Shown here piece after piece: positions 7,521-36,407 of a stretch of 64,000 bases of DNA. Under the pieces are notes generated by a model. That model had not been told where the DNA came from and searched no databases. It saw only the letters and a program-made list of their open reading frames with translations. Numbering within the stretch: the stretch's first letter is position 1; the number at the start of each line of letters is the position of its first letter. Position numbers and translations under genes: made by a program. This stretch comes from a virus, in IMG/VR virus record IMGVR_UViG_3300030117_007745, positions 48,655 to 112,654 of that record. The stretch is one strand, 5' to 3'.

Positions 7521-7522
7521 TA

Positions 7523-7723: not shown

Positions 7724-7731
7724 ATATTCTC

Positions 7732-8688
7732 CTACCATTTAAAATTATCTATGTAGAATTTTACCATCTTTTCTACTTCTTCGTTAAATATTTTTTCAGG
7801 TTTCCAGCCCAAAGATCGCAACTTGTCATCATTTAGGGCATACCTTACGTCTTGTCCAAGCCTTTTGTAGCCAAGATCTACATATTGTTGCCAATTCTCG
7901 TCTGTTCCATGGTAAGCTTTGATGACTTTTCTAACAGTTTCCCTGTTTTCTTGCTCAAATCCGCCGGCGATGTTGTAAATTTCGTTTGTTTTTCCACTAT
8001 TTATGATAGTTACAACTGCATTTGCCGTATCTTCAGCATGTAACCAGTTTCTTATAGGCTTACCCTCATCATGAAGTCTAATTTTTTTACCTCTCATTAA
8101 AAGTTTGACTGTTAAAGGGACCAGTTTCTCTGGATACTGGTAAGAGCCATAGTTGTTTGTAGGTCGAAGGATAATATACTCTAATCCATAAGTTCTTGCC
8201 CAAGATTTTACAAGCATATCTGCGGCCGCTTTGGAGGCAGAGTATGGATTACTAGGGTTTAGGGGGTCAGTTTCTATGTGTTCTCCGTCTGCTATGTCAC
8301 CATACACTTCATCAGTACTAAATTGCAAAAATACGGGCCTTTCTACAACATTATTTGGCTTTTTTTTGATTAATTCTAATAAATTGTGCACTCCATCGAC
8401 ATTTGTTCTTAAAAATTCTTTACTATCAAGAATACTATTGCCAACATGAGTTTCTGCCGCAACATTAATGACATAATCGCAATCTGGTAAGCTCTTTAGC
8501 TCTGTTATATCCTCATCAATAAAAGTAAAGTTATCTTTATAATGAGTTTTGAATTTTCTGATCAAACTAGGGTTTGATGCGTATGTTTTGTTGTCTATAC
8601 CATACACTTTCCAGCCTTGACCTAAGCACTTATTCGTCACATGAGACCCAATAAACCCCAAACAACCTGTTATAACAACTAATTTCAT
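7732..8688 (-). CDS. rfbB: dTDP-glucose 4,6-dehydratase
   Basis: GCLGFIG, AAETHV, STDEVYG, YSASK, NNYG..QYPEK motifs. Confidence 0.85.
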   Translation of the reverse strand: MKLVVITGCLGFIGSHVTNKCLGQGWKVYGIDNKTYASNPSLIRKFKTHYKDNFTFIDEDITELKSLPDCDYVINVAAETHVGNSILDSKEFLRTNVDGVHNLLELIKKKPNNVVERPVFLQFSTDEVYGDIADGEHIETDPLNPSNPYSASKAAADMLVKSWARTYGLEYIILRPTNNYGSYQYPEKLVPLTVKLLMRGKKIRLHDEGKPIRNWLHAEDTANAVVTIINSGKTNEIYNIAGGFEQENRETVRKVIKAYHGTDENWQQYVDLGYKRLGQDVRYALNDDKLRSLGWKPEKIFNEEVEKMVKFYIDNFKW

Positions 8689-9066
8689 CTAATCTCCCTT
8701 GTGAATCCTGTGACTGTCACTATCGAAGTGTTGTGTTGAAAATTCAAACAATTCGGTGTCCTCTAAAGCTATCATTTGGTGCCTTAAACCTCTGTAAACA
8801 TGGAAGTTATCGCCTCTATTCAAGATTAACTCCTTTGCAGACTCAATATCATCTTCGTCAGAGTACTTAACCAACATTTTACCTGACTGAATATAAAATA
8901 CCTCGTCTTTTAACTCATGATAATGCCATGAACACCTCTTGCCCTTGACAAAATAGAGCAATTTTCCACAATATTCTTCATTATTTACGATCCACTTTTC
9001 AAATCCCCAACCTTTAGGGACAAATTTCATTGGTAAAGAAGTGTCCATCACTAATCCCCTTATCAT
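8689..9066 (-). CDS. Cupin-fold sugar isomerase (mannose-6-P isomerase/lyxose isomerase-like); true start probably 9030
   Basis: KGWGFE, SWHYH..KDE, H motif. Confidence 0.75.
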   Translation of the reverse strand: MIRGLVMDTSLPMKFVPKGWGFEKWIVNNEEYCGKLLYFVKGKRCSWHYHELKDEVFYIQSGKMLVKYSDEDDIESAKELILNRGDNFHVYRGLRHQMIALEDTELFEFSTQHFDSDSHRIHKGD

Positions 9067-9349
9067 CTATGTATAGGTCTCCGCTTGGTTTACCTAAAAT
9101 TAACTGGTGGTATTTAACTTTCCAAGAATTTAATTGATTTTCCGTCAAAGCGTAAAATTCTTGTATCGCTAAAGTAGCATTATTGTTATACCTGCCCATC
9201 CCTCGGGCCGTAAAGAAAACTATTTCATTTCCTTCATCATAAAGCCTATTTATAAATTCTATTCTGTGATCATAGGGCTCTGACTTGTCATAATCTTCAT
9301 TATCTTTTTTGTAACAAATTGTTCCGTCAATGTCAAAAACATATCTCAT
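9014..9349 (-). CDS. HAD-superfamily phosphatase (capsule-biosynthesis type)
   Basis: FDIDGTI, TARG, GKP, YIDDK. Confidence 0.8.
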   Translation of the reverse strand: MRYVFDIDGTICYKKDNEDYDKSEPYDHRIEFINRLYDEGNEIVFFTARGMGRYNNNATLAIQEFYALTENQLNSWKVKYHQLILGKPSGDLYIDDKGISDGHFFTNEICP

Positions 9350-9726
9350 AACTTACTCAACGTGCTAGTAGTGGAATAACCATCAATATAATTAAATATT
9401 TTAACATCACACAAGTCGCTACCAACAACTGTGCTGACTGTATAATCACCACCTTTAACTATTATATCAGGTTTTGTCTGTTTTATTAAGTTATAAGGAG
9501 TGTCTTCGTCAAATATATGCACTTCGTCAACATACTTACAAGAAAGAAGCATAAATATTCTGTCTTCCTGAGAAAAGACTGGCCTAGATGGGCCCTTTAA
9601 CTCCCTGACACTAGTGTCGCTATTTAGGCCAACGATAACATAGCCTAGAGATTTGCAATACCTAAGCAGTTCAAAGTGCCCTCGATGCAATACATCAAAG
9701 CACCCATTGGTAAAAATCTTCTTCAT
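9346..9726 (-). CDS. rfaE2: RfaE/HldE domain II-like nucleotidyltransferase (heptose-1-P adenylyltransferase-like)
   Basis: TNGCFDVLHRGH, GLNSD..V..LKG..RP, KGGDY, GYSTT. Confidence 0.8.
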   Translation of the reverse strand: MKKIFTNGCFDVLHRGHFELLRYCKSLGYVIVGLNSDTSVRELKGPSRPVFSQEDRIFMLLSCKYVDEVHIFDEDTPYNLIKQTKPDIIVKGGDYTVSTVVGSDLCDVKIFNYIDGYSTTSTLSKL

Positions 9727-10463
9727 ACAATGCTAACCCCTCGTTTTTGAACAACTTTTGTTGCACACTGATTAGCAAATTTAATTGCATCAACTATGTC
9801 TTTTGTCCGGACATACTCAAAGCACAGGCCGGATACAAATGTGTCTCCTGCTCCTGATGTATCCTTCACTTCAACTGTTGGGACTGAATAGATATTGTTT
9901 TGAAACTCTGAACCGTATTGCCCTTTTGTTAAAATCACTTTTTGCTTAAGGGTGTCTGTAAAATTATCTCGATTGTTCTCGTATTCTTTATGATTTAGCT
10001 TAATAAAATTAAATCCTTCGGCCCAATCAGATAAAAGTCTTTTTGTGTCAATAAAAGTTGTGTGATGCATTCCAGAGATAGCATGCAATACTTCTTCCGA
10101 CATATAACCTTTGTTATAATCAGACACAATCACAGCATCATAATCTTCAAAGTTTATTTCCTGTAGCTGATCCAGTGTCAGGGTTCCGTAAGAATTGTCG
10201 TTTTCATCAACACGCAGGAACATGTGATTTGTTCTGTTGTCCATGTACCTTGTTTTTGTTATTGAGTCGTTGGTAGCGTTGGTAATTAAATCTACTCTTG
10301 CACCCAAAGATAGTAGGTTTCTTTCAACGTTCTTGGCCATACCCCATGTTTCAACTGTATTTATCAGCTTAAAGACAGGGACAGGTGCATCAGGGCACAG
10401 ACGGCTACAATCTCCGTAATGAAATACATCTTTGCAGCTTTCACCAAAAACTAATATTTTCAT
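9723..10463 (-). CDS. rfaE1: RfaE/HldE domain I-like PfkB kinase (heptose-7-P kinase-like)
   Basis: RLCPDAPVPV, SDYNKG, DTSGAGDTF. Confidence 0.8.
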   Translation of the reverse strand: MKILVFGESCKDVFHYGDCSRLCPDAPVPVFKLINTVETWGMAKNVERNLLSLGARVDLITNATNDSITKTRYMDNRTNHMFLRVDENDNSYGTLTLDQLQEINFEDYDAVIVSDYNKGYMSEEVLHAISGMHHTTFIDTKRLLSDWAEGFNFIKLNHKEYENNRDNFTDTLKQKVILTKGQYGSEFQNNIYSVPTVEVKDTSGAGDTFVSGLCFEYVRTKDIVDAIKFANQCATKVVQKRGVSIV

Positions 10464-11467
10464 CGAGTTAAGAACCTTCTACCAGTTTTTATTTGTTGTC
10501 TCCAATATTCTAACAGATCTTTCATTGTTTTGTCAAATGAAATTTCAGGCTCCCACCCAGTATGCTCTTTAAACTTTGATGTATCAGGCACCTGAAGATC
10601 TGCATCAATTGGTCGAAGGCGATCAGGGTCGATCTCTACCTTAATATCTTTGACGGTAGATAATGATATAAGATGTTCTAACATTTCTCGAACAGTGCAG
10701 GTGTAAGACCCTCCAATGTTATAGTACTCTCCAGCTTGTGGATTCTCTGTAACCAATAAATAATAAGCTCGCACCGCATCTCTAACATCAGACCAAGTTC
10801 TAAGTGAATCTAAGTTTCCAACCTTAATAACAGGAGGTATCAAGCCTTCCTCAATCATTGCAATTTGCTTTGCAAATGTTGACTCTGCAAAAACATCTCC
10901 TCGTCTTGGCCCTGTGTGAGTAAACATTCTGGTTGTCATCACTGTCATACCATATGCTTCTCCATAGAAGCGGCCAACCAAATCTGTGCCGACTTTGGAA
11001 ATTGCATACGGAGAAGCTGGATGAAACGTTATGTCTTCGTGAATTGGCAAAAACTCTTTTGGCACTCTTCCAAACACTTCTGAAGATGCACAAACATGCA
11101 CCACTGGATTTTGTCCGAGAACTCTGATTGCTTCTAAAACCTTTGCAGTACCAAGCACATTTGTCTCTAGCGTTTCTAGCGGAGCAGAAAAGCTTGTCTT
11201 TGGATAACTTTGTGCTGCCAAGTGAAATACATAATCAGGCTTTGATTCCTCAAAGCATGTTATCAGCGAGGCCAAATCATTAATGTCAGCATTTAAAAGA
11301 TGTACCCTTTCTTTATTGTTGATTAAGGGCATAAGGTGCTCAATGTTATCCATCTTATCATTCCATCGAACTAATCCATAAACTTCCCAGTCCGTATTCT
11401 CAAGTAGATAATCGGCTAGATGAGAGCCAACCATACCAGTGATTCCAGTGATTACTGCTTTTTTCAT
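10460..11467 (-). CDS. GDP-sugar 4,6-dehydratase, WcbK/DmhA (GDP-heptose)-like
   Basis: GITGMVGS, HLAAQSYPKTSF, SSEVFG, SPYAISK, THTGPRR, GNLDSLR; recalled close resemblance to Campylobacter WcbK. Confidence 0.8.
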   Translation of the reverse strand: MKKAVITGITGMVGSHLADYLLENTDWEVYGLVRWNDKMDNIEHLMPLINNKERVHLLNADINDLASLITCFEESKPDYVFHLAAQSYPKTSFSAPLETLETNVLGTAKVLEAIRVLGQNPVVHVCASSEVFGRVPKEFLPIHEDITFHPASPYAISKVGTDLVGRFYGEAYGMTVMTTRMFTHTGPRRGDVFAESTFAKQIAMIEEGLIPPVIKVGNLDSLRTWSDVRDAVRAYYLLVTENPQAGEYYNIGGSYTCTVREMLEHLISLSTVKDIKVEIDPDRLRPIDADLQVPDTSKFKEHTGWEPEISFDKTMKDLLEYWRQQIKTGRRFLTR

Positions 11468-12252
11468 TTGTTTTTCTCCGCGTCATAACGATCTAAAAGG
11501 CGGCGTTGTGCAGTGAATCCGGGCCAGAATGGCTCTTTTTCTTTAATATACACTGAGTATATTGTTCTACGCCATCGTGTTGGATGCATATTCTTGTCAG
11601 CTTTATGAAGTAATAAGCCATTAACTACAAGAATATCTCCTGCATTGTACTTTAATTGTTTTGTTGGTAGCTCATCAGAAAGTATATTTCCATCAGAATC
11701 TCTATAATCACTTAACTTCTTAGCATCTCCAATGGGCGCAACCTGAACTATTCGACCCTCTTCGTCACGAGAAAAATTTGGGCTTGGATCAAAAGACAGC
11801 ATTCCAAACTTATGACTTTTTGGTACGACAATTAAAGATCCGTTTGTCTCATCTGCGTCGTCTACAATTATAGCCAAGTTTATGTAATTGTTCCCGTTTG
11901 GGGCCATTGGGGCAAAGTTATCTTGATGCCATATAGAACCATACTCCAATGGATTACTCGGCTTACAGAAAAAAGTAGTCGAGGCTATTGGAATTGCGCG
12001 GCCTTTACATATTGCATCACCAATATCACACATCTTCTTTCCCCTGTGTGCCTGTTTGATGCTTTTATGAAAATGCATATCTAAGCGAACCGTAAAGTGT
12101 CCATTAGCAGCGTCGTCCAAGTCTTTTCTGATGATGTCTACTTCTTCGCTGTTCCACACCTGTGGGATTAGCAAGTACCCATTTTCCTCATAAAAATCGA
12201 GCTGATCTGGACTTAGTTCATACGAGTCCATATGTGTCCTTAATTCACTCAC
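11464..12252 (-). CDS. Phytanoyl-CoA dioxygenase family 2OG-Fe(II) oxygenase
   Basis: FYEENGYL, WHQD, NGSLIVVPKSH, distal His, and RR motif. Confidence 0.8.
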   Translation of the reverse strand: MSELRTHMDSYELSPDQLDFYEENGYLLIPQVWNSEEVDIIRKDLDDAANGHFTVRLDMHFHKSIKQAHRGKKMCDIGDAICKGRAIPIASTTFFCKPSNPLEYGSIWHQDNFAPMAPNGNNYINLAIIVDDADETNGSLIVVPKSHKFGMLSFDPSPNFSRDEEGRIVQVAPIGDAKKLSDYRDSDGNILSDELPTKQLKYNAGDILVVNGLLLHKADKNMHPTRWRRTIYSVYIKEKEPFWPGFTAQRRLLDRYDAEKNK

Positions 12253-13198
12253 TACAGTTCTCCTGATACCACTTGATTGTTTTTTCCAAACCTCTCCCTA
12301 AAGTATGGGCTGGCTTCCAATCAAGCTCTTTCTCTGCTTTTGTGCAATCTAAAAATAAAGATGTTGGCACAGTCGGCTTTGTTAAATCGTGCCTAATCGC
12401 AAGATCTCTACCAGAGCATTGTATCACTTTCTCAACCAAATTTTTAATTTTTATTCCCTCTCCTAAGCCCACATTGTAAAGCTCATAGTTGCCTTCTTGC
12501 TTCGATAGAGCAGCCTCTATAAAAGAGATAAAATCTTCTACGTACAGCAAATCTCTTGCTTCTTCGCCTGTTCCCCATACATTAACAAGCCCATCCTGAG
12601 ATGTCATTACCTTAGTGATTGTTGCCCCTGTAACATGAGACTTCTCCAAATCGTACTTATCGTAGGGGCCATATAGATTAGAATGCCTGATCACTGTGTG
12701 CTTTGTTTTTCCAAAGCCAGCATAAAATTTACACATGTTCTCCAAGTATACCTTTGTGTGGCCTGCTCCGTAATAAAAAGGCAGAATATCATCTGATGGG
12801 TTGTAGTCACTTTCCTTTAAGGCTTTTTCTGATTTTTGGTACATTATTGTACAACTAGGGAAAATGAAATGCTCTATACCTTGCTCAAATGCCTCTCGTA
12901 AAAGATATGAATTCATTACAACATTGTCTGTTACGTGGATGTATGGCTTAGAAACAATATCTTTGGCTCCAGTTGTTGTGGCAGCAAACTGCATAACAAT
13001 ATCCACGTCTTTAAGAATATTTGATACCTGCTTTGGATCGCGCAGATCACACTGCACCCATTCGACATCTGCATATTCAGATAACGCTGGTCTTTTGAAG
13101 TGAGTGGCCCTAATTTTATATTTGTTAGTCTTAGAATAAAAATCTAATAAGTTTTTTCCTATAAACCCTGTTGCTCCACAAATCAAAATTCTTTTCAT
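12245..13198 (-). CDS. NAD-dependent epimerase/reductase (GDP-fucose synthase-like)
   Basis: GATGFIG, NLYGPYD, VWGTGEEARDLLYV. Confidence 0.8.
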   Translation of the reverse strand: MKRILICGATGFIGKNLLDFYSKTNKYKIRATHFKRPALSEYADVEWVQCDLRDPKQVSNILKDVDIVMQFAATTTGAKDIVSKPYIHVTDNVVMNSYLLREAFEQGIEHFIFPSCTIMYQKSEKALKESDYNPSDDILPFYYGAGHTKVYLENMCKFYAGFGKTKHTVIRHSNLYGPYDKYDLEKSHVTGATITKVMTSQDGLVNVWGTGEEARDLLYVEDFISFIEAALSKQEGNYELYNVGLGEGIKIKNLVEKVIQCSGRDLAIRHDLTKPTVPTSLFLDCTKAEKELDWKPAHTLGRGLEKTIKWYQENCSE

Positions 13199-13776
13199 TT
13201 CTTTCTCCCGTCCAGTATTAGCTCTTCTTTCTTTTCTATGAAAGCATTGTAGATCTTATCAACGACCATATCAATGTCCATAGCATTAACTCTATCTGGA
13301 GTTGTCTTTATGTTCGTGGGATACACATCTAATACCTGAATATTGTTTTCTTTTTTGAAACTATTTGAAAACCCTCGAAGGCCCCACTTAGTAGCAGAAT
13401 ACAGAGTTCTGGGTGTCTTTACTTCTAATCCTACCATCGAGTTTATATTTATAACCCCTTTAAGATTTTTCAATAATCTCTTGGTTAAAAGAACTGGGGC
13501 CTTTAAATTAACTTCTATCATGGAATTAATTAAATCATCTTCATATTCTTCCAAAGGAATGTTCGGACAGACAATCGCAGCGTTATTAACCAACACATTT
13601 ACCTGTAGTCTGTTGGCCTCTTGAGATAGTTTCTTAACCTCATCTGCATTTGTCAGGTCGTAATGTTTCCTTCCTTCGTGCCGAAAAACAAAATGGCCCT
13701 CGTTTTCAAATTTATTAGCTAAATGAAAACCAAGGCCAGAAGAGCATCCAGTTATTAAAATTCTAAACTTATTCAA
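13195..13776 (-). CDS. Short-chain dehydrogenase/reductase
   Basis: TGCSSGLG, VNNA, YSATK. Confidence 0.8.
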   Translation of the reverse strand: MNKFRILITGCSSGLGFHLANKFENEGHFVFRHEGRKHYDLTNADEVKKLSQEANRLQVNVLVNNAAIVCPNIPLEEYEDDLINSMIEVNLKAPVLLTKRLLKNLKGVININSMVGLEVKTPRTLYSATKWGLRGFSNSFKKENNIQVLDVYPTNIKTTPDRVNAMDIDMVVDKIYNAFIEKKEELILDGRKK

Positions 13777-14748
13777 TTATTTCTCCAATAATTTAAAAAC
13801 ATCCTTACCAGAGTCTGCCACTGCTTTATTCTCTAGGTACCATTGAATTGTTTCCTTCACACCCTCTTCAATTGAAATTTGAGGCTGAAATCCATAAGAC
13901 TTTGCCCTTTCCATATCGAAGACCCTCCTGTGATCGCCTGTCGGCTTGGAGGTATCCCACTCTATTTCTACGTTTGCTTCGGCTGCTACAGCTTCAGCAA
14001 TTCTTTTAATGCTAATTTCATCACCTGATCCGAGATTAAGCGGCTCTGTTATTTTGTTTTCAACTGCAAAAACCATTCCTCGTGCAACATCTCTAGCATG
14101 GATAAAATCCCGAATAGAAGATCCATCTCCCCACACTTCTAGAGTATTATTACTAAAGGCTTTTCTTATAAGAGAGGGAATCACCATTGCACTATCTAAA
14201 TCAAAATTATCATGAGGGCCATATACATTTGCAGGCCTAACAATGCTGCACTTTCCTTCGCCATATTGCTTTTGGTATGCCTGACATTGAAGCTCGCCCA
14301 TTCTTTTTGCCCAACCGCCGAACCAATCATTTCTTGACGGCTGTGTTTGCCATACATCATCCTCTCTTAGTACCTCTGCTGGCTGATATACTCCAACAGT
14401 GCTTGTATACAAATACCACTCTACATTGTGATACATGGCCGCTTCTAGCATATTTGTGTTAAACTGCATCATTGGTCCCATGATTTTTGCCGGCTCTTCA
14501 ATGCAGACGCGAGGTGAACATTTGATGCCAACTAAATTAAAAACATAGTCCATTCCCTCACAAATTTTTAAACACGAAGAGTATTCTCTTAAGTCTACTT
14601 TGACAAATGTGACCTTTTCTTTTAAATCTTCTGGCTGTTTTAAGTCTGCAACATGAACATCTGCACCTTTGTCTAAAAGAATCGTTACCAGTTCACGGCC
14701 GATCATTCCTGCTCCGCCTGTTACTAATACTTTTTTATTCTCAAACAT
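13777..14748 (-). CDS. NAD-dependent epimerase/reductase (Fcl/ColC-like)
   Basis: TGGAGMIG, RPANVYGP, VWGDGSSIRDFIH. Confidence 0.8.
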   Translation of the reverse strand: MFENKKVLVTGGAGMIGRELVTILLDKGADVHVADLKQPEDLKEKVTFVKVDLREYSSCLKICEGMDYVFNLVGIKCSPRVCIEEPAKIMGPMMQFNTNMLEAAMYHNVEWYLYTSTVGVYQPAEVLREDDVWQTQPSRNDWFGGWAKRMGELQCQAYQKQYGEGKCSIVRPANVYGPHDNFDLDSAMVIPSLIRKAFSNNTLEVWGDGSSIRDFIHARDVARGMVFAVENKITEPLNLGSGDEISIKRIAEAVAAEANVEIEWDTSKPTGDHRRVFDMERAKSYGFQPQISIEEGVKETIQWYLENKAVADSGKDVFKLLEK

Positions 14749-15898
14749 TGTTTAACCTCTTGCAAAGCTCTAAAATCTGCTCTTCTCTAAGCTCGGGGTG
14801 ATTTCCTATGTAAAGTCCGTAGTCTTGTATGTAATCAGAAACTTCCAACTTTCCAACTACCTTATGATCGTATCTTTCAAGGTATGGCTGCCTAGCTTGG
14901 TTGCCGCCGCCTGCCGTGCCGAGACGATATTCTACCTTTTCTTCTTCCAAAATCTCACAAACTAGCTTAATTTTATCGTTATCTTTTGTTAAGATCAAAG
15001 GTAGTGCATAATTGCTGCTACCCTCTACATTATACTCTGTATAATACAACATATTGTCCAAGTTTGTCAACCAAACATTTAGATTTTCTTGCCTTTTTTC
15101 AATATTATAATCAAGACGTTGGATCTGTTCGAGTCCCAAAACTGCATTAATCTCGCTTGATCGCATGTTATATCCCGGTACTGCAAAAGTAAACAGCGGA
15201 TTTACATCTGGCTTTGCGTATTTCTCATGTGTTTCTTGGCTAGCTTCCCTTGTCATACCATGAGACCTAAACATTCGCGCCAACTGATAAATTTCTTCGT
15301 TATTTGTGCAAAGCATGCCACCTTCAATTGTTGTCATGTGATGTCCAAAATAGAAAGAAAAACAAGACATATCTCCGTAAGAGCCCACTTTCTTGTCTTT
15401 GTATGTTGCTCCATGAGATTCGCAACAATCCTCAATTAAAATCAAATCATGCTCTTTTGCCAACTCAATAATCTTATCGTTAATTCCATTAAATCCCAAA
15501 GCATGAACAAGAACTATAGCTTTTGTATTCTCATTTATTGCTTTTTTTATGTTTTCATAGGAAATAGCCATTGTATCCAAATCAACGTCTACAAAAACAG
15601 GCAAGAAACCAGTGTTTATTACTGAAGAAATGTCAGACACCCAGCCGATTGGAGGCACAATAATTTCCCCTTTTTGACCTTTTAATTCTCTTACAATAGA
15701 TGTTGTTATGTAGTTGGACGCTGCTCCAGATCCAACCATTACACTATACTTCACGCCAAGCCATTCGGACCACTTTTTTTCAAACTCTTTTACTTTTGGA
15801 CCGTTTGTGAAGCGGTTAGTGTTCAAAACAAAGTCTGCGAGGGCTCTCTTGTCATCATTTGTTATATTATCGTTAATTAATGGCCAATCAAACACCAC
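14741..15898 (-). CDS. DegT-family PLP enzyme, ColD/RfbH-type 3-dehydratase
   Basis: EDCCESHG; SFYFGHHMTTIEGG has His in place of the Schiff-base Lys. Confidence 0.8.
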   Translation of the reverse strand: MVFDWPLINDNITNDDKRALADFVLNTNRFTNGPKVKEFEKKWSEWLGVKYSVMVGSGAASNYITTSIVRELKGQKGEIIVPPIGWVSDISSVINTGFLPVFVDVDLDTMAISYENIKKAINENTKAIVLVHALGFNGINDKIIELAKEHDLILIEDCCESHGATYKDKKVGSYGDMSCFSFYFGHHMTTIEGGMLCTNNEEIYQLARMFRSHGMTREASQETHEKYAKPDVNPLFTFAVPGYNMRSSEINAVLGLEQIQRLDYNIEKRQENLNVWLTNLDNMLYYTEYNVEGSSNYALPLILTKDNDKIKLVCEILEEEKVEYRLGTAGGGNQARQPYLERYDHKVVGKLEVSDYIQDYGLYIGNHPELREEQILELCKRLNNV

Positions 15899-17599: not shown

Positions 17600-17605
17600 G
17601 TAACC

Positions 17606-18657: not shown

Positions 18658-18660
18658 AAA

Positions 18661-19200: not shown

Positions 19201-19209
19201 TGTTTCTCC

Positions 19210-25677: not shown

Positions 25678-25990
25678 AAAAGTCCTTATCGCTTACACCT
25701 TTGTCATCGATGTAATAATCTGCAACAAGTTTTACGCCCACTCTTAATTGATGAAATTTTAATCCCCATGAAATCAATTGATTGTGAGTTTCCATATACC
25801 AATTGTTTTTAGAACTGGATCCCCTAGCAGTTTCAATGTAAATTGTATTACCTTTTTCAAACAAATCATTTACTTTTGCTATTCTATCCCTGTAAGGTTC
25901 TGCACCAAAGTAATCCCAGTCTCCATTTTCTTTCTTTAAGGTGTTGCAGAGAGTATGGTCTAGATCAAATACGTATGTTTTATTCTTCAT
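25664..25990 (-). CDS. HAD-superfamily phosphatase
   Basis: FDLDHTL, TARG, YIDDK. Confidence 0.75.
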   Translation of the reverse strand: MKNKTYVFDLDHTLCNTLKKENGDWDYFGAEPYRDRIAKVNDLFEKGNTIYIETARGSSSKNNWYMETHNQLISWGLKFHQLRVGVKLVADYYIDDKGVSDKDFFEDG

Positions 25991-25993
25991 GTA

Positions 25994-26893: not shown

Positions 26894-27618
26894 TTTTTCC
26901 TCAATACTTGAATAGGTTGATAAGGGGTGCCATTTACGCCATTAACATCATTGGTGTAGGATTGTTCGAAGAAGCCAAATTTGTCAACCACTTCCCACCC
27001 TGTCAGGATTTTTGGCATTCTGTTTTCTCCATAAACTCTGTGTACATTAAAGACAGTCTTATCTAGGCCAACAGGGACGGCAAAGTATACAAAGGCGTCA
27101 TCTTTTATGAAGTTTTTAAGGCTTTTCATTGCTTTTAAATCTCCGTCAGGATCAAGAGGGTCGCCATACCTTCCCAAGCCATCATGTTCAACAGAAGAGA
27201 TAGAAAAACAAGCATCAAAATTGCCCTCAGTAATCTCATGTGGCTGTAAATATGTGATCTTTTCGTGGAAAGATTCGCGCTTAGAATATTCAATGACAGT
27301 GCATGATTTAGCTCCAAAAGAAACGGCGATGGCCTCATACCATGGATTGGCAGAGCCAATAATGCAAATATCTTTTCCCTCAATAGGATACTTTGTTAAG
27401 GCCTCATAGAGCCAGCCGTCTGTTGGGCCGTAATAAAAATTCTCTCTTTTTGATGCCTTTTGCAGATATTCTTCAAATATTTCTGACTTAAAATTGTCGT
27501 TGAAAAGCTTTTGTATTTCATCAGAACAGTCATTCGCATATTTGTATTCTAAAGCTGCTTCTCCATCCATTGTATAACCATCAAAAAGTTTTGATGGAAT
27601 TCTTTCTGGGGCCTTCAT
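26890..27618 (-). CDS. DUF268-like SAM-dependent methyltransferase
   Basis: IIGSANPWYE, SISSVEHDGLGRYGDPLDPDGD, FNVHRVYG. Confidence 0.75.
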   Translation of the reverse strand: MKAPERIPSKLFDGYTMDGEAALEYKYANDCSDEIQKLFNDNFKSEIFEEYLQKASKRENFYYGPTDGWLYEALTKYPIEGKDICIIGSANPWYEAIAVSFGAKSCTVIEYSKRESFHEKITYLQPHEITEGNFDACFSISSVEHDGLGRYGDPLDPDGDLKAMKSLKNFIKDDAFVYFAVPVGLDKTVFNVHRVYGENRMPKILTGWEVVDKFGFFEQSYTNDVNGVNGTPYQPIQVLRKK

Positions 27619-28239
27619 TTATCTCACCTCGATGTTTTTAAATAATTCAAATTCTGTTAAGTCTCTATAGGGCGGAGACTCTGGAATATCTGGTACATTT
27701 TCAGGGTAATTTTGCATTAACATTAACCCCCTAACTGCTTGCTCGGGTGTCATGTACATGTTCCACCCCTCTTCATCAATCATATCTTCATGATATCTCA
27801 TGCCATCGGTTCGGCCTTCATATCGCCTTGCCTTAAGCCATTTTACTGCTTCTAGATCATCGCAAAGTATCATACCACCTTTACCAATTTTAAGATGTTT
27901 TTTAATATGAAACGATAAGCACATCATTGTTCCGGGAATGTACATATTTGATGTAAGTCGCTTTGCTGCGTCATATATTGGAAATGGTTTGAATTGATAT
28001 ATGCCTTCCCATTCTATATCTTCAAAAATTAATTTTCCGCCGGCCTGTATAACAGACTGCGGTGGGGAAAGGTAAGTCCTCTTTGGGAGTATGACCTCTT
28101 TTCCTTCTATTTTATGCCATTTGCATGCAAGAAATAAAGCATTTGTGCAGCTATTGACCGATACAGCGTATGGGGCTCCGGTGTAGTGGGCTATTTCTTC
28201 CTCAAACATTTGCACTACCTTATAAGGATTGTGAAGCAC
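27619..28239 (-). CDS. Short DegT/DnrJ-family aminotransferase
   Basis: VNSCTNAL, DAA, SFHIKKHL..GKGG. Confidence 0.75.
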   Translation of the reverse strand: MLHNPYKVVQMFEEEIAHYTGAPYAVSVNSCTNALFLACKWHKIEGKEVILPKRTYLSPPQSVIQAGGKLIFEDIEWEGIYQFKPFPIYDAAKRLTSNMYIPGTMMCLSFHIKKHLKIGKGGMILCDDLEAVKWLKARRYEGRTDGMRYHEDMIDEEGWNMYMTPEQAVRGLMLMQNYPENVPDIPESPPYRDLTEFELFKNIEVR

Positions 28240-28622
28240 TATTCTTTCTCCATTATATAATATTTCTTTTTAAATCCGCAAGATTCAAATAATCTCATAC
28301 TTGCATTATTTTCTAATTTAACTTTAGCATATGCACTAGGGTGCATGTCCATCAATTTCTTGATCATAAATTTTCCAACTCCACGGCCTTGAAAATCCGG
28401 ATGTGTTGCTACTCTGATATCTTCATCGATAACTCCCACGTATCCTGCTGGTTGGTCATCTATTAGGCAAACATAGAAGAATAGGCCGTATCTAAGCATA
28501 TACTTTTCGTGACAATCTTTTCTAATTGCTTCTTGTTGAATAAACCCTCTTTTAACATCTGGGTGATTGCGAAGATTTCTAATGAATTCCCAATATTTTG
28601 GCTTGTTTTGTACTAATTCCAT
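28239..28622 (-). CDS. GNAT N-acetyltransferase (PseH-like)
   Basis: HPDFQGRGVG, NNASMRLFESCGF. Confidence 0.8.
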   Translation of the reverse strand: MELVQNKPKYWEFIRNLRNHPDVKRGFIQQEAIRKDCHEKYMLRYGLFFYVCLIDDQPAGYVGVIDEDIRVATHPDFQGRGVGKFMIKKLMDMHPSAYAKVKLENNASMRLFESCGFKKKYYIMEKE

Positions 28623-29399
28623 TTACACACACGATTTGAATAGGTCAGGGTGAGGGAAGTTGTTATGATAAGCTCTCAAATAATCCCTCTCTATGCTTAA
28701 CCCAATATAAGGATGAAGAGTTGTTCCAATGTCGATGTACGTATTTTTATCACTGTGTTTAAACAACTCATATATAAGAACTTCACTTAAGCTGCTAGCA
28801 GACAACAAAAATACATGATCTTCTACATTATTATCGTCTATCCATTGCTTAATGTCAACAACTAAATGATGATCATTAACAATACAATTTTTTCCAACTT
28901 TAAAAGATTTTACAACATCAAACTCAGTATTGGATAAGTCAGCATTCTCACTACAAACAAAAACAACTTTTTTCTTCTTGAGTTCTGGTACGAAATGGCC
29001 AATGAATAAAGGATAGTTTGAATTTACCAAGAGATTAGCAGAAGTGAGATTATCGTCTACTTGGCCATATAATTCATGCATCCAAGGGGCAAATTCCATA
29101 GAGGCGCAGGTACAATCTTTGCAAATGCCGCCAACAAAATAGTTTTCTTTTTTGTATTTATAGGCTTCGATTAAAATATCTTTTAAGAAGCCATGCTGAT
29201 TTGGATCGTAGTGTTTATGGTCGTCTGAAGAATATCCAAAATTATAATGAGTCTCGCCCATTACAACATGATCATTCGCTAGCTTAAGCTCTTTGTCTTG
29301 CATAACACAGATTTCGCCATCAGAAAAACGAGTGTATGCAAAGTGTTCATTTCTTTTTAATTTACCGAGCAGATTGAAAAAATCTTCTTCAAACTTCAT
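28623..29399 (-). CDS. GT-D fold (DUF1792-like) glycosyltransferase
   Basis: RFSDGE and IDIG motifs. Confidence 0.6.
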   Translation of the reverse strand: MKFEEDFFNLLGKLKRNEHFAYTRFSDGEICVMQDKELKLANDHVVMGETHYNFGYSSDDHKHYDPNQHGFLKDILIEAYKYKKENYFVGGICKDCTCASMEFAPWMHELYGQVDDNLTSANLLVNSNYPLFIGHFVPELKKKKVVFVCSENADLSNTEFDVVKSFKVGKNCIVNDHHLVVDIKQWIDDNNVEDHVFLLSASSLSEVLIYELFKHSDKNTYIDIGTTLHPYIGLSIERDYLRAYHNNFPHPDLFKSCV

Positions 29400-30384
29400 C
29401 CTTCAGGACCTCATATACTTTTTCAGCAGCGTGTCCGTCGCCATATGGGCAGTCGCCTTCAGGTATATGATCTTCATTGAGTTGATTGAAAATACCTTCC
29501 AGAGACTTTGGCTCAAAACACATAAAAGCAAAAGTATTGACGCCTTCAACTCTCTCTGTCTTCTTTCGACAGACAATGCACTTCTTTTTTAGGAATGAAG
29601 TTTCTTCTTGTAATCCGCCAGAATCAGTTATAACGAGCCTTGTTTTCGCCAACAACTTTATAAATTCATTATACTCCATTGGCTCAACAATTTTAAGGTT
29701 TTTTAGCAAATGTTTATGCTTTTGAACATTCGGATTTGGGTGAAGAGGGATGATGAATTCTAGTTCTTTGTTACCTTCTGCTATCTTATTAATTGCCTTG
29801 AACCACTCATCCATATTGTGGTGGTTTTCTCTGCGGTGCATTGTTACAACAACTTTATTTGTATACTCTGTCTTGGTTCCCAACAGGTTATCTAACACAG
29901 TATTTCCGACAACTTCGATTCTTCCCTCTGTATTTTCATTCCTTAAAAATATTTCAGACAATTCAGTTGGGCACAAATGTACATCAGCTATTCTGGATAT
30001 AGCTTGGCGATTGAACTCTTCTGGATAGGGCTGATTTTTATCGTAAGTTCTCAGGCCTGCCTCTAGATGCATCACTTTTATTCTGCGATGAAAAGCAGCA
30101 AGGGCAATAGAGAAAGCAGAGGTCGTATCGCCCTGTACTAAAACAGAAGTTACGCCTTCAAAAATCTCTTCCAAATTCATAACGGAACTGACAATAGAGT
30201 CAAGTCGATTTGGCCCGTCTTTGATCTCTAGCTTAATCAAATCCTTGCCTTCTCCAACTTTTGATAGCAGGTCTGTGTGTTGGCCTGTAAACAAAAGCCG
30301 ATAAGGAATTTTGCCTTCCATTTGGTCTAGCAAAGGCTTAATCTTAATCCATTCTGGTCTTGTGCCAAAGCTTAATAAAATCAT
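29389..30384 (-). CDS. wecB: UDP-N-acetylglucosamine 2-epimerase (non-hydrolysing)
   Basis: GTRPE, TGQH, QGDT, HLEAGLR, PEEFNR, HRREN, TDSGGLQEE. Confidence 0.9.
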   Translation of the reverse strand: MILLSFGTRPEWIKIKPLLDQMEGKIPYRLLFTGQHTDLLSKVGEGKDLIKLEIKDGPNRLDSIVSSVMNLEEIFEGVTSVLVQGDTTSAFSIALAAFHRRIKVMHLEAGLRTYDKNQPYPEEFNRQAISRIADVHLCPTELSEIFLRNENTEGRIEVVGNTVLDNLLGTKTEYTNKVVVTMHRRENHHNMDEWFKAINKIAEGNKELEFIIPLHPNPNVQKHKHLLKNLKIVEPMEYNEFIKLLAKTRLVITDSGGLQEETSFLKKKCIVCRKKTERVEGVNTFAFMCFEPKSLEGIFNQLNEDHIPEGDCPYGDGHAAEKVYEVLKDEV

Positions 30385-31988
30385 ACCTTTATACCTCGCA
30401 CGGTTTTCCAACCGCCTTTAATCGCTGTCTGAACACACACGTCTCTTTCGTTAAAAAACTGTTGATGTGATACAGCTTGATTTGTTGAGGTCGCTTTCAC
30501 ATCAATTCCCAATTCATTGCCCAACACTGAACCGTGCATCGATTTATCTTCGGGAGGATGTGGAGGGCAGTATGTTTGAATGTTGCCATATTTCTGGGCA
30601 AGGTAAGAAAACTGAATATCTTCTCCGTTATCCCAAGTTGTTGGCTTTTCTCTCCACAAATATTGTAGCCATTCTCGTTTAAAAAACCAAGCGTGTCCAA
30701 CTAAGTCAACCCTTGTTGTTTCACTATTTTGTGTTGGCCATCCGCAACGATCATGCTTAACATAAAATTTATCATTCAATGTAACTCCGGCAGATCCCAA
30801 GATTCCTTCATTAGTTTTCATTGTTTCTAGGCAGTTATCAAACCACTTTTCTCCGGGTATTGTATCGTCGTCAAATATGGCTACATATTCAGTGTCAGCC
30901 AACAAAGCAGCGGCAAACCTTCCATAGAACTTCCAGTTGTAATCATTGTGGAATATTCTATCAAGGTCAAGTTCTTTAAAATTGAATCCATCATTATCCT
31001 CGTGTTGATTTACCCACAGCCAAATCTGTGTTGGTCTAGTTGTCTGCTTTCTGATTGCATCAATCTGCATTTTAAGATTGTATGGGCGTCGATAAGCATT
31101 GAGAATCACAGTGATTGGAGCTTTTTTGGCCTCGGGCCTTTTGTCACTTTCTAGAACCTCTATAACTTTGTCAATAACCTTTGTTTTTTGAGACCTTACA
31201 AAATCTAGAAGCTCTTGTCCTTTATATTTAGAGAACCATTCCTCGCTAGCACAGCCGAGGTTATTATTGGTCTTAAGTTTGCAATTTACAATACGAGCTT
31301 CAACGGCCAAACGGCAGAAAGTTTCGAGAACCTGAGAAAAGAAAACCAACCCGTCGTGTTCTGCAAGTTGTTTGATAAAATTGTTATAATCTAGTGAGAC
31401 AATAAGGTTGTAAGGAATCTTGTTTTGTTCGCAGAAACTTTTAGCTTGCTCTGTTCCTTTAATTTGATTAGTGCTGTTCAAAACAGCCATCTTCCCATTC
31501 TTCTTGCTGTTCACATGTTGTTGTAGCGTATCGAACTCTTCGTCAGACCATAGAGAACATCCCAGATTGATTACATTTGCTTCTCTAATGTTTTTACTGA
31601 TTACTTCAGCGTGTAATTTAGATTGAGCAAAGACTGCTTTCGCGCTTCTGTAAAAATCAAGATTAAGCAATCTGTTGGGTGGTACTTTGTAATCTTTGTA
31701 CGGGGAAGGATCTCTGCCAACAATGTATTTGTGGTCGTGTTCGTATATCACGTAGTCGCAAGACTTAAGTAAGTTGATGCACATGCCGGGAAGCATAACA
31801 AAATTAGAAACAATAAAAAGCTTATCTGCGTTATCCTTGATTAGTTTTTCTGTGACATGTTTTGATTTAACTCGCGCTACTTTATAGCCCCTTTTAACGA
31901 GCGAAGAGACGACAATCTCGTCTACGAGTTCACCGCCTCCTCTAATCTCTGAAGCATAAAAATCCGCTATGTGAATAATTTGTTTCAT
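30381..31988 (-). CDS. Two-domain glycosyltransferase (GT4-like + GT2-like)
   Basis: N-terminal ETFCRLAVEA; C-terminal IFDDD DxD motif and GED. Confidence 0.7.
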   Translation of the reverse strand: MKQIIHIADFYASEIRGGGELVDEIVVSSLVKRGYKVARVKSKHVTEKLIKDNADKLFIVSNFVMLPGMCINLLKSCDYVIYEHDHKYIVGRDPSPYKDYKVPPNRLLNLDFYRSAKAVFAQSKLHAEVISKNIREANVINLGCSLWSDEEFDTLQQHVNSKKNGKMAVLNSTNQIKGTEQAKSFCEQNKIPYNLIVSLDYNNFIKQLAEHDGLVFFSQVLETFCRLAVEARIVNCKLKTNNNLGCASEEWFSKYKGQELLDFVRSQKTKVIDKVIEVLESDKRPEAKKAPITVILNAYRRPYNLKMQIDAIRKQTTRPTQIWLWVNQHEDNDGFNFKELDLDRIFHNDYNWKFYGRFAAALLADTEYVAIFDDDTIPGEKWFDNCLETMKTNEGILGSAGVTLNDKFYVKHDRCGWPTQNSETTRVDLVGHAWFFKREWLQYLWREKPTTWDNGEDIQFSYLAQKYGNIQTYCPPHPPEDKSMHGSVLGNELGIDVKATSTNQAVSHQQFFNERDVCVQTAIKGGWKTVRGIKV

Positions 31989-33250
31989 TAGTCAAAGCTC
32001 ACAACTGATTCTTCTCTTTCCTGTTCTTCCTGCATAACAGCGTTTGCAAACATGTCATATTGTTTGCTTGGCTCATATTCTTTCTTAACAAATTTTTTCA
32101 AATTTTGTGCGAGCTTTTTGTAATGATCGTAATTGTTATACATGCTGTTTAAGCTTTTTTGGTAACTATCTTTTTCTGGATATGCCCACATTGAATCTGG
32201 TACCAAGACTCCTTGCCATGCAGCCTCCGGCTGAATTGGCCCAATTGTGTATTCAACTTCACAAAAATGTGGCTTATAAACAGTTGTAGTTTTGCTTTTT
32301 GATCCTTTCTTTCTTTGTTTAGTGGGAACATTCAAAAAGTCACATTGTCCACCCCAATTTATGCTAATAATTGGCAGTCCCGTGTAAGACGCCTCATACA
32401 TTGGTAGCCCCCATCCTTCCGCATTTGAAATACAAATCAATGACTTAACTTTTTCATGATCATATAAGCCAACCATTTGCTCATCTGACAGATCTCCATG
32501 GAGCAAGTATATTTTACATTTTGCATCTGGTGGGACCAGCGCTTTCATCATTGATTCTGCTCGCAACCTATCACTAGTTGCATTGTTTTTTACAAAACCT
32601 TTGACAATTAGTCCAACATCTGGGTTGTCTTTGAAATTGTCCACAAACCAAGAAATAGTATTGTTCATGTTTTTTCTTGGGCCCCACTGAGACACGGTAA
32701 GAAAATTAAAATCGGTTTCTAAATCTAAATCAATTTTTTCTTTTTTTAGATCTTTTGCTGGATATCCAACAAACTTCACAGGCGTTGTTACAGATGCCTT
32801 TCCAACCGGCTGATTTGTATTTCTATCAATCATATCATAGGATGTCTTAACCATACTTGTTCTTGCATGATTACTAATAACAATGATTCTATCCATTATA
32901 TTACATTTTTCAATCCACTCTGGTGCGATCTTTGTTGACTCGATGCCGGCAGTATAGCCTATATTTACTGGAGCTAATTTTTCCCATTCATTAGGTATTG
33001 TTATTTGCAAAGACAGGTCAAATTGTCCCTTGCTTTGAATGAAGTGGAAAGTCTTTTGTATGAGAAAGTCAATATATTTTCTTTCTTCGTTATCTTGAGA
33101 GGCCCATCCAGTTTGGCCCCAAGATGTATTAATCAGATAAATATCATATCTATGCTCATGTTTTTTTAAAGATCTTAGTGCAAATCTTGACTGCTCTCCA
33201 TAGCCTGACCTGCTCAATACTGGTCCTCGGAGGATTATTTTTTTTCTCAT
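31988..33250 (-). CDS. GT4 glycosyltransferase
   Basis: SGYG, RKN, EGWGLPMYEA. Confidence 0.8.
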   Translation of the reverse strand: MRKKIILRGPVLSRSGYGEQSRFALRSLKKHEHRYDIYLINTSWGQTGWASQDNEERKYIDFLIQKTFHFIQSKGQFDLSLQITIPNEWEKLAPVNIGYTAGIESTKIAPEWIEKCNIMDRIIVISNHARTSMVKTSYDMIDRNTNQPVGKASVTTPVKFVGYPAKDLKKEKIDLDLETDFNFLTVSQWGPRKNMNNTISWFVDNFKDNPDVGLIVKGFVKNNATSDRLRAESMMKALVPPDAKCKIYLLHGDLSDEQMVGLYDHEKVKSLICISNAEGWGLPMYEASYTGLPIISINWGGQCDFLNVPTKQRKKGSKSKTTTVYKPHFCEVEYTIGPIQPEAAWQGVLVPDSMWAYPEKDSYQKSLNSMYNNYDHYKKLAQNLKKFVKKEYEPSKQYDMFANAVMQEEQEREESVVSFD

Positions 33251-33259
33251 AAAAATTCC

Positions 33260-34522
33260 TTAGTTTATTTTCTTAAGCGTCCATGGGGAGTAAACTTTTC
33301 TATTTTCCCATGACCCATGCTTTTCATGTATTTCATCTAAAAGTTCTACCCATTTTTCTTGATATTGATCAAAAGAATAGTTGTTGGTAACATGTTCTCT
33401 TCCCATATCTCCGAGCTTTTTCAAATCTTCTTTTTTCATGTTATACATTTTTTCACATGCATCCATAAAATCTTTTTCGGAGATCCTATCTTCAAAAATA
33501 TAAGGAACCTGTTGAGAGCCAATAAGCGCCTTTGAAGCTGGCTCCAAACCAATACCAAACCAATTTTCTCCATCGGTAACCTGCTCTTGCAATCCTCCGG
33601 TCATTGTGGCGATGATGGGTGTACCGCAAGAAAGAGATTCTAGAGTCGCTAAACCAAACCCCTCTGCATCTGATATATTAATCGTGCAATCGGAAATATT
33701 ATACATTGCTGATAATTCTTCTGGTCCAACTTTTTCCCTAGATATTCTTACTTGGCCCTCGTTTGCTCCAAAATGTTGTATTAGGTGATCTAGAGGCTGA
33801 CCATATGGATCGTTTGGATCAGTGTGCATAATCAAGACACATTTATCTTTGCCTACTTTATCACAAAACTTTTTAAACCAATAAACTAAACTTCCGCTTT
33901 GTTTTCTTCTAGCATTTCTATTGTTCCAAAAGAAAATAAATTTATCTTTCAGGCCATGGTGTTCTTTTAAATTATCAATTGCTTCTTGAGACATCGGCTT
34001 GAATACTTCTGAGTCTACAGCATGTGGTAGATACAATGATTCAACTTTGTCTGTAACTTCTTTAACAATTGAATGTGTTACTTTTGAAATACAAGCTACA
34101 ACATCATTAGATTCATAAAAACCTTTATTGAAAACTGGTGCTGGATAATTGTCCCAAACGTGATAATAGATCATAGGAGCATGGGCCCTCACTTCGTTAT
34201 CAATATCCCATAACCATTCATAAAACCTAGGATCTGTCATAAACCAAACCATATCAGGCTTTTGAGTTCTCAGGATTGATCTAACCTGATCTTGGGTTCC
34301 ATAGCCATCTACTGGTAATATAACCCAGTCGTCTCCAAATTTGTCAACTTTCATTGGCTCATAATTTTCATGCTTGACTGCACCGCCTAAAGAAAAAACT
34401 TGATACCTTCCAGTTTTAAGGAGTGCTTCAATCATGTATCTTGTTTGGTTTGCTACCCCGGAAGGAGAAAGGGGGTGATCGCTAATGGTAAGTAATTTTA
34501 TCTTTTTATCTGTCATGGACAA
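33260..34522 (-). CDS. GT4 glycosyltransferase
   Basis: NRNARRK, EGFGLATLES. Confidence 0.8.
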   Translation of the reverse strand: MSMTDKKIKLLTISDHPLSPSGVANQTRYMIEALLKTGRYQVFSLGGAVKHENYEPMKVDKFGDDWVILPVDGYGTQDQVRSILRTQKPDMVWFMTDPRFYEWLWDIDNEVRAHAPMIYYHVWDNYPAPVFNKGFYESNDVVACISKVTHSIVKEVTDKVESLYLPHAVDSEVFKPMSQEAIDNLKEHHGLKDKFIFFWNNRNARRKQSGSLVYWFKKFCDKVGKDKCVLIMHTDPNDPYGQPLDHLIQHFGANEGQVRISREKVGPEELSAMYNISDCTINISDAEGFGLATLESLSCGTPIIATMTGGLQEQVTDGENWFGIGLEPASKALIGSQQVPYIFEDRISEKDFMDACEKMYNMKKEDLKKLGDMGREHVTNNYSFDQYQEKWVELLDEIHEKHGSWENRKVYSPWTLKKIN

Positions 34523-35286: not shown

Positions 35287-35288
35287 TA

Positions 35289-36267: not shown

Positions 36268-36281
36268 TTTTTCTCCATATT

Positions 36282-36358: not shown

Positions 36359-36370
36359 TTAATATATAAT

Positions 36371-36399
36371 AATATAATATAATGTTTAAATTTTGTCAA
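36371..36399 (-). promoter_or_regulatory. Sigma70-type promoter for tRNA-Ile2
   Basis: TTGACA-N17-TATATT. Confidence 0.7.
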
Positions 36400-36407
36400 G
36401 AAAAAAA

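Follow-up and report, generated by a model that had tools for sequence, protein, structure and literature searches.

A hypervariable island of sugar-pathway and glycosyltransferase genes without export functions in uncultured marine myophages

Introduction

Which glycan does a tailed phage build with some thirty co-oriented sugar genes, and onto what is it placed when the genes for its export are missing? This question is raised by a gene block in the IMG/VR record IMGVR_UViG_3300030117_007745, of which we analysed the final 64 kb (64,000 nucleotides, hereafter the window) of a single 112,654-bp contig belonging to the linear class and having no terminal repeat. An earlier note, made from the letters of this stretch, had described positions 7732–34522 as about 30 co-oriented, mostly abutting or overlapping genes for the synthesis, decoration and transfer of sugars, running directly into late structural genes; as no export functions were seen, a cytoplasmic acceptor was proposed, most likely a virion protein. 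The block itself was readily recovered as 33 minus-strand open reading frames (ORFs), whose neighbours abut or overlap by 1–59 nt, with a maximal gap of 9 nt.

We propose the following scenario for this island. Three soluble glycosyltransferases (GTs) of the GT-B fold, which we call GT4a, GT4b and module X, would start a glycan on an acceptor conserved throughout the lineage, GT4a and GT4b acting as a heterodimer. Swappable cassettes lying downstream would make rare nucleotide sugars, and the further soluble GTs of these cassettes would extend the glycan wholly in the cytoplasm, an order of action that we infer. The likeliest acceptor would be one or more virion proteins, giving each phage strain a sugar coat of its own.

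The phage and its relatives

The contig is that of a phage, having portal, large terminase, tail fibre, SbcC-like, primase, endolysin and PhoH genes on board, along with gp25-like and gp6-like baseplate wedge genes, three tRNAs and one tmRNA. The closest catalogued large terminases (TerL) come from Flavobacterium phage immuto (46% identity), Microcystis phage Mel-JY01 (42%) and a 484-kb uncultured phage, with TerL of T4-like cyanophages (ca. 34%) behind all three. No match to the island was found by megablast among 50,697 phage records, and the sole match for the right half of the window was a tRNA.

According to CheckV, the source contig is 44% complete, so absences on this contig alone are weak. 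Our comparison therefore included 80 related loci from a scan of viral contigs, whose compared flanks reach 10 kb only. Seventeen of these loci are situated on contigs of 144–204 kb (hereafter the long relatives), 14 of which are at least 90% complete (CheckV) and two of which have direct terminal repeats. Overall, these T4-related myophages, with genome sizes of 170–204 kb, form an abundant marine lineage that is uncultured and carries the island as a constant feature.

A fixed site with exchanged content

In this lineage, the island site is fixed between a PD-(D/E)XK nuclease gene and a T4-type late sigma gene. From 74 to 80 of the 80 loci keep the genes for PhoH, a 246-aa protein, the nuclease, GT4a and GT4b (76–80 for the last three); the 535-aa protein joining module X to a GT2 domain is found in 55 loci, while genes downstream of it recur in 0–29. 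The end of the island is constant as well: three small ORFs are followed by the gp55-like sigma gene and then by large structural genes. The late sigma label itself comes from a weak PHROG match (phrog_234, E 4e-6), and a homologue of this gene is present in 17/17 long relatives with 48–66% identity. Among the small ORFs, the one at 7278 is universal, while those at 7523 and 6982 occur in 14 and 13 of 17 islands, respectively (the window included).

Cassette variability among related phages, a comparison suggested in the earlier note, proved to be very high, as 419 proteins from 17 islands fell into 159 clusters, of which 101 had a single member. Universal presence in these 17 islands was limited to GT4a, GT4b, one small ORF and the sigma gene. 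Sixteen complete related islands measured 7.1–27.2 kb from GT4a to sigma, with 9–34 co-oriented genes and 95–100% coding density, and the island of the window is the largest seen (28.2 kb between the same genes). The smallest (loci L066, L070 and L072) were composed of GT4a, GT4b and one 220-aa ORF. The island of one relative with a 100% complete genome, G012, is nearly collinear with that of the window; the main difference is a dehydrogenase/HisC-like/PaaK-like/HAD cassette of the window (22072–25990), which we read as acquired. Thus, the content behind the core is exchanged like that of a serotype locus. An assembly chimera or host insert was also considered and ruled out by the same island site in the 17 relatives and by the GC content of the block (33–40%), which is like that of its flanks.

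Membrane, export and initiation steps

None of the 33 island products has more than one predicted membrane helix, and we take all of them as soluble. A Kyte–Doolittle scan of all proteins of the 112.6-kb contig found none with more than two hydrophobic segments, so the earlier statement that multi-membrane-spanning proteins are lacking holds for the whole contig. Bac_transf (PF02397) was absent from the contig in a six-frame search. The absence of Wzx/Wzy and of an initiating transferase, likewise noted before, could be extended to the 17 long relatives, which lack Bac_transf (PF02397), Glycos_transf_4 (PF00953), Polysacc_synt (PF01943) and Wzy_C (PF04932); searches for the same families were positive in 10–13 of 14 control bacterial and archaeal genomes. 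Judging by hydrophobic segments, there was no ABC exporter-like polytopic ORF on the contig or in 16 islands, the ABC2_membrane family itself not having been searched, and no ORF in the 16 complete related islands had more than two such segments.

In the whole genome of G012 (246 ORFs), the maximum was five hydrophobic segments, in a PAP2 phosphatase (G012:C1:169479-170135) lying 100 kb from the island. The PAP2 family includes undecaprenyl-pyrophosphate and lipid A phosphatases. No PAP2 protein was seen on the contig of the window. As a separate observation, multi-segment ORFs near the islands of two other relatives were limited to an M50-family peptidase (L023:2349-2975, G005) and a DoxX-like protein (L064:7497-7931, G013), both upstream of PhoH and outside the island.

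The core glycosyltransferases

For GT4a, homologues number at least 8000, and identity to it is 62–81% in the top 120 clusters, many of them coming from ocean surveys. Mean column identity across 44 sequences is 65%, and GT4a is about as conserved as PhoH (median 60% vs. 62%). Residues 9–314 match the chlorovirus protein B736L (PDB 3oy2; phmmer E 2e-7). For GT4b, an AlphaFold2 model (pLDDT 93) had the same B736L structure as its top Foldseek match (E 9e-16, TM-score 0.62–0.66), and the closest viral models were GTs of giant viruses and archaeal viruses. Since GT4b retains a motif of the E-x7-E type, it looks catalytic rather than chaperone-like.

Module X is a conserved N-terminal part of 280 residues, which occurs as a stand-alone protein, fused to varied C-terminal halves or attached to the C-terminus of GT4b. 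The fusions with GT4b suggest that the two work together. Its AlphaFold2 model (pLDDT 95.9) is a compact GT-B, with BshA, Gtf3/GtfC and the T4 alpha-glucosyltransferase as Foldseek neighbours (TM-score 0.5–0.64). Fold searches with GT4b and module X did not separate protein, DNA and small-molecule acceptors.

A heterodimer of GT4a and GT4b is predicted by modelling. Their complex scored 0.82 against 0.00 for the best control, reaching a mark attained by 58 of 80 solved complexes and by 2 of 110 mismatched pairs; the modelling used alignments that we supplied, and resemblance to GT-B pairs of known structure may have raised the score. The runs had at least 95% of contacts in common, with partner pLDDT of at least 88. 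In the model, the C-terminal tail of GT4a (413–420) pairs with residues 246–254 of GT4b. Such a result backs binding without demonstrating it.

The core pair is also met in cultured phages. In immuto, the nuclease (gp183) and the two GTs (gp181 and gp180) are syntenic with those of the window, the nuclease lying next to the pair, and head an 11-kb island of GT and sugar genes. In Mel-JY01, the nuclease is close to the GT pair, with one gene between them, and the GT4a homologue is represented by two adjacent genes (L005, 14998-16489) of 190 and 302 aa, which between them account for the window protein; either the gene is split or the record has a frameshift. In the Rhodothermus phage RM378, the pair adjoins replication genes and is without sugar genes. 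By BLASTP, the pair is clear in immuto and Mel-JY01, while the GT4b match of RM378 is weak. The pair thus spans phages of three host phyla (Flavobacterium, Microcystis and, more weakly, Rhodothermus), which argues for an acceptor travelling with the phage rather than for a host-specific envelope glycan. In cyanomyophages, tblastn found no three-GT core.

The acceptor of the glycan

Cytoplasmic glycosylation of virion proteins has, in our estimate, about an even chance of being the right explanation. It fits best because membrane steps are missing across the lineage, the conserved core resembles an initiator and its enzymes are kin to giant-virus GTs; glycosylated mycobacteriophage particles add a precedent. 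We are a little less confident, somewhat short of even, that the ocean lineage puts strain-specific rare-sugar glycans on its own virion proteins through a heterodimeric B736L-like initiator and a third GT-B enzyme. Such a system would be the phage counterpart of the autonomous glycosylation of giant viruses, with cassettes under diversifying selection at the particle surface. Overall, of what was claimed earlier, the absence of export stands and now extends to the relatives, while the cytoplasmic virion acceptor is still to be regarded as conjecture. In this connection, the motif [ST]G[ST] is enriched relative to composition shuffles in three proteins of the structural region, which lies on the contig before the window: a 3248-aa protein (contig 29798-39544; 29 copies vs. 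6.5 expected, z 9.1), a 381-aa protein (contig 18992-20137; z 5.7) and a 418-aa protein (contig 17715-18971; z 4.0). These could be glycosylation sites or just motifs of repeated domains.

Several points weigh against a virion acceptor. Even for B736L, neither the acceptor nor the donor has been settled (PMC9614988). The upstream neighbours of the island are a nuclease and PhoH (replication genes in RM378), not structural genes. Membrane genes might also be present elsewhere in the phage's own genome, given the 44% completeness of the contig. The other points would suit a remodelling of the host surface, in which phage enzymes build on a host undecaprenyl-phosphate-linked or lipid A–core intermediate at the inner face of the membrane, and the host initiating transferase, flippase, polymerase or ligase displays the glycan on the cell surface; the effect would be to block superinfection or to keep progeny from re-adsorbing to debris. 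In O-antigen loci, soluble GTs normally use lipid-linked intermediates on the inner side of the membrane as their substrates, and here the carrier lipid, the flippase and the ligase could come from the host. O-antigen and capsule loci typically encode soluble GT4, GT2 and GT11 enzymes and these same sugar pathways, and serotype-like hypervariability is a trait of host-surface loci, which the mosaic cassette turnover resembles. A PAP2-superfamily membrane phosphatase, encoded by 4/17 relatives (G012, G003, G007 and G013), makes some envelope manipulation in the lineage possible. Finally, modification of the host O-chain is what the published work favours for similar cyanomyophage and pelagimyophage islands (PMC7029224, PMC12801897).

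Nevertheless, we consider host-surface remodelling, although it is the main competing reading, rather unlikely. A membrane step was found in 0/17 relatives, and the PAP2 gene is unlinked to the island where present and absent from the other 13. Moreover, the highly conserved core pair is shared by phages whose hosts belong to three phyla and differ greatly in their envelopes, and the host flippase and ligase would need to accept at least 17 different phage-specified glycans.

Another scenario, raised as an alternative in the earlier note, is hypermodification of DNA, with the GTs putting a mono- to oligosaccharide on a modified base and thereby evading restriction, as in T4. Clusters of methyltransferase, 5mYOX and GT genes are known to add hexose, N-acetylhexosamine or heptose to 5-hydroxymethylcytosine, and heptose-bearing DNA glycans have been reported (bioRxiv 10.1101/2023.12.21.572611). 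Nuclease and (in RM378) replication genes as upstream neighbours, as well as the T4 alpha-glucosyltransferase among the structural neighbours of module X, speak for this scenario. However, six-frame searches found no Thymidylat_synt (PF00303) hydroxymethylase in the contig and 17 relatives and no C5 DNA methyltransferase (PF00145) in the same 18 records. Tet_JBP (PF12851) gave no match in the contig and 17 relatives either, a soft negative, as its control was silent in every genome. Known DNA-sugar systems are defined by enzymes of these kinds (bioRxiv 10.1101/2023.12.21.572611). In immuto, nucleoside analysis by liquid chromatography with ultraviolet and mass-spectrometric detection recovered only dA, dC, dT and fdPreQ1 (PMC10516641), with no sugar-bearing nucleoside in the digest. 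Furthermore, 33 genes with at least six GTs go far beyond any known DNA sugar system. Taken together, such evidence weakens this alternative to the point that we find it highly improbable.

Another cytoplasmic acceptor might also be imagined, be it a small molecule, a lipid, a protein of the host or a non-structural protein of the phage, for example in sequestering host nucleotide sugars or in forming a soluble glycoconjugate freed at lysis. Among cellular proteins, those structurally nearest to the core enzymes (BshA, MshA, TreT and sucrose-phosphate synthase) do glycosylate small molecules. Yet diversification of the glycan at the strain level points to a surface that is exposed and under selection, not to an internal metabolite, and we know of no precedent for such a system. 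For these reasons we deem this option improbable and continue to prefer a virion-protein acceptor.

If the glycan is indeed on the virion, open-ocean tailed phages would have individual sugar coats, devoting up to a seventh of the genome to them. This might alter how the phages adsorb, how they stick to particles and grazers and how host defences recognise them, and would recast the lipopolysaccharide ('LPS') genes long noted in marine myophages. The question of the acceptor is directly testable, since the core pair is present in the cultured phages immuto, Mel-JY01 and RM378. Regardless of the acceptor, the islands are a large reservoir of unstudied rare-sugar enzymes.

Gene content of the island

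The features of the island and its anchors are listed in Table 1. Family calls rely on Pfam and NCBIfam, most NCBIfam scores being under the equivalog cut-offs. Of the six or so GT genes claimed earlier, five are supported by Pfam, one of them with two GT domains: two GT4, a compact GT-B fused to GT2, a GT11 and a CgeB-like Glyco_trans_1_2. The sixth, a presumed GT-D (28623-29399), has no Pfam or PDB match and is left as a soft lead, as the viral clusters to which a language model led have GT-D families in 14–18% of their members. The short-chain dehydrogenase/reductase (SDR) set consists of six extended dehydratases, epimerases or reductases (one RmlB-like, one Gmd-like and four of the GalE/Fcl type) and one short SDR. 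RmlC, two cupins, DJ-1 and two further small HAD-like proteins are also encoded in the block.

Table 1. Genes of the island and its anchors (window coordinates), ordered from the left anchor to the right one in the direction of the genes
Feature	Position	Strand	Evidence
PD-(D/E)XK nuclease, left anchor	34513..35286	-	PF12705 E 2e-17; homologue in 80/80 loci
GT4a, first core enzyme, 420 aa	33260..34522	-	Pfam Glycos_transf_1 and GT4-conflict
GT4b, second core GT-B, 420 aa	31988..33250	-	Glycos_transf_1 E 1.6e-8; in 77/80 loci
Module X (1-280, compact GT-B) with GT2 domain (293-413), 535 aa	30381..31988	-	Pfam GT2
WecB, non-hydrolysing UDP-GlcNAc 2-epimerase	29389..30411	-	TIGR00236 244.7 bits (cut-off 210)
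258-aa protein, possibly GT-D-like	28623..29399	-	Language-model lead to viral clusters
GNAT acetyltransferase	28239..28622	-	PF00583 E 7e-12
Short DegT-family protein, 206 aa	27619..28239	-	PF01041 E 4e-24
DUF268 protein, assumed methyltransferase	26890..27618	-	PF03269 E 1.5e-30
GT11 (fucosyltransferase family)	25994..26893	-	PF01531 E 9e-17
Cassette of nucleotide-sugar dehydrogenase, HisC/CobD-like pyridoxal phosphate (PLP) enzyme, PaaK/CapK-like adenylating enzyme and small HAD phosphatase	22072..25990	-	
Fcl-like SDR epimerase/reductase	21062..22075	-	Pfam Epimerase E 2e-42; NCBIfam
CgeB-like glycosyltransferase	20086..21120	-	PF13524 E 9e-9
140-aa unknown, RmlC-like 3,5-epimerase, DJ-1/PfpI, cupin, 129-aa unknown	17606..20095	-	Pfam; TIGR01221 E 6e-34
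Stand-alone thiamine diphosphate (ThDP) E1 alpha/beta pair	15888..17599	-	Pfam E1_dh and Transketolase domains
Gmd-like 4,6-dehydratase, PhyH dioxygenase, two Fcl-like SDRs, short SDR, RfbH/PseC-type PLP enzyme	10460..15898	-	Pfam, NCBIfam
Heptose-7-P kinase (RfaE domain I), heptose-1-P adenylyltransferase (RfaE domain II), HAD phosphatase	9014..10463	-	
RmlB-like 4,6-dehydratase and cupin, final sugar genes of the island	7732..9066	-	TIGR01181; Cupin_2
Right anchor: three small conserved ORFs and gp55-like late sigma (6299-6982)	6299..7738	-	

In the 22072–25990 cassette, the dehydrogenase exceeds the cut-off of its family (TIGR03026, 255 bits), the HisC/CobD-like PLP enzyme is slightly below its own (TIGR01141, 270 bits), and the PaaK-like protein, a relative of phenylacetate-CoA ligase, matches PaaK in PDB (2y4o, E 1e-12). 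Judging from these families, the cassette may make an amidated uronic acid. Three of its four genes have no counterpart in the 16 related islands. Homologues of the PaaK-like gene are marine sequences, some of them on long contigs, and a search for them gave no pointer to the host.

The ThDP pair is a candidate sugar C-branching enzyme, its NCBIfam matches to pyruvate dehydrogenase E1 alpha and beta being far below cut-off, and the genes at 10460–15898 look like a deoxy- or dideoxy-sugar branch. The split-RfaE trio matches TIGR02198 (E 3.5e-35), TIGR02199 (E 3e-41) and TIGR01689 (E 4e-11), each below the equivalog cut-off, as is the RmlB-like gene (TIGR01181, 305.6 bits vs. a cut-off of 365). 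Overall, the sugars made here are probably a modified, perhaps C-branched deoxy-heptose, a ManNAc-derived sugar, an amidated uronic acid and a 6-deoxy- or fucose-type sugar; these identities are deduced, since they are read from family names and most scores fall below the equivalog cut-offs. We would also like to comment on the 206-aa DegT protein, which keeps its length and ca. 78% identity in 21 loci, always within the cassette of WecB, the 258-aa protein and GNAT. It is therefore a stable short form rather than a (recent) pseudogene.

Expression signals and neighbouring genes

The earlier claim that the block runs into late genes concerns gene order only, and no timing signal could be read. 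The gp25-like and gp6-like baseplate genes are just beyond the window start, behind a gene for a 2824-aa protein, and none was shown within the window. The T4 late-promoter motif TATAAATA occurs in 10 copies against 6.9 expected, mostly intragenic, and no copy precedes the island. Scans for sigma-70-like promoters and terminators were at chance level overall, and from 36267 to 3591 no minus-strand terminator-like site was found between genes. Two minus-strand sites of the sigma-70 type, 36399-36371 (11/12) and 38742-38714 (12/12), are located upstream of tRNA-Met and tRNA-Leu; they are the only strong intergenic ones and occupy the only sizeable intergenic gaps. The former stands at the head of the gapless run of genes to which the island belongs.

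The three tRNAs of the minus strand are Met-CAT (36282-36358), Leu-TAA (38614-38700) and Arg-TCT (40335-40409), the last being 83–91% identical to tRNA-Arg genes of Klebsiella and other phages. A tmRNA gene is found at 43083-43407 (+), with the tag ANTDTYSEYALAA. Between PhoH and the lysis genes there are genes for a TubZ/PhuZ-like tubulin (40782-41933, -), a ClpP protease (39696-40316, -), a trypsin-like protease (37784-38614, +) and a protein with a SAM-lyase domain (43439-44575, +). Further on, the 724-aa product of 52190-54364 (-) has a hydrophobic segment at its N-terminus and a putative metal-binding motif of the MopE type (Pfam E 5e-15), and 51132-52127 (-) encodes a short (331 aa) adenylosuccinate synthetase homologue, present in 2/80 related loci. 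An assignment of the latter as PurZ (PHROG '2-aminooxy adenylosuccinate synthetase') was rejected, since cellular PurA matched with E 4e-56 and PurZ structures with E 1e-13 to 1e-18.

Comparison with known systems

By its gene content, the island resembles O-antigen and capsule loci of the Wzx/Wzy or ABC type, which have the same enzyme families, a co-oriented block of sugar and GT genes and diversification by cassettes. Unlike these loci, the island lacks an initiating phosphoglycosyl transferase, a flippase or ABC transporter and a polymerase or ligase, and so do its near-complete relatives.

The GtfA/GtfB/GtfC system of serine-rich repeat adhesins is another point of comparison, as the island has two adjacent GT-B proteins, predicted to pair, and a compact GT-B with Gtf3/GtfC among its structural neighbours. 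The Gtf enzymes act in the cytoplasm on protein, GtfB being non-catalytic, and GtfA and SdgB are among the fold matches of GT4b. However, this likeness is at the level of the fold only (TM-score ca. 0.5), and small-molecule and DNA GTs score equally; no serine-rich repeat substrate or accessory Sec gene was found among the annotated genes of the contig.

Giant viruses also encode sugar pathways and soluble GTs without export, as exemplified by the capsid glycans of chloroviruses (NY-2A B736L and PBCV-1 A546L) and the fibril clusters of mimivirus. B736L is the nearest to GT4a and GT4b by sequence and fold, although its identity is only ca. 14% and its virus is a eukaryotic one, and the phage glycan is a predicted one. 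Among phages, mycobacteriophage GTs are reported to glycosylate capsid and tail-tube subunits (Freeman et al. 2023, cited in PMC12619734). These phages have just a few GT genes and are not known to carry a large island for sugar synthesis.

From large marine myophages, hypervariable islands of sugar and GT genes are already on record. The islands of P-SSM2, S-SCSM1 and S-SCSM2R and the 'host recognition cluster' of pelagimyophages are likewise non-syntenic and rich in GT and nucleotide-sugar genes (rfaE, UDP-glucose dehydrogenase, epimerases), and their function is unproven (PMC7029224, PMC12801897). The hypervariable 'host recognition cluster' is situated between VrlC and gp14 and holds tail-fibre genes (PMC7029224). 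In contrast, the site described here extends from the nuclease to the late sigma gene and has no tail-fibre gene inside. In comparison with the cyanophage islands, the lineage is a different one (TerL ca. 34%), and a three-GT core is present. What is new, then, is the constant placement of the island from nuclease to late sigma, its trio of core GT-B enzymes with the fusions and the predicted heterodimer, the presence of the first two of them in cultured phages of three host phyla, the serotype-like exchange of the remaining genes, the lineage-wide absence tests and the link to a published nucleoside analysis.

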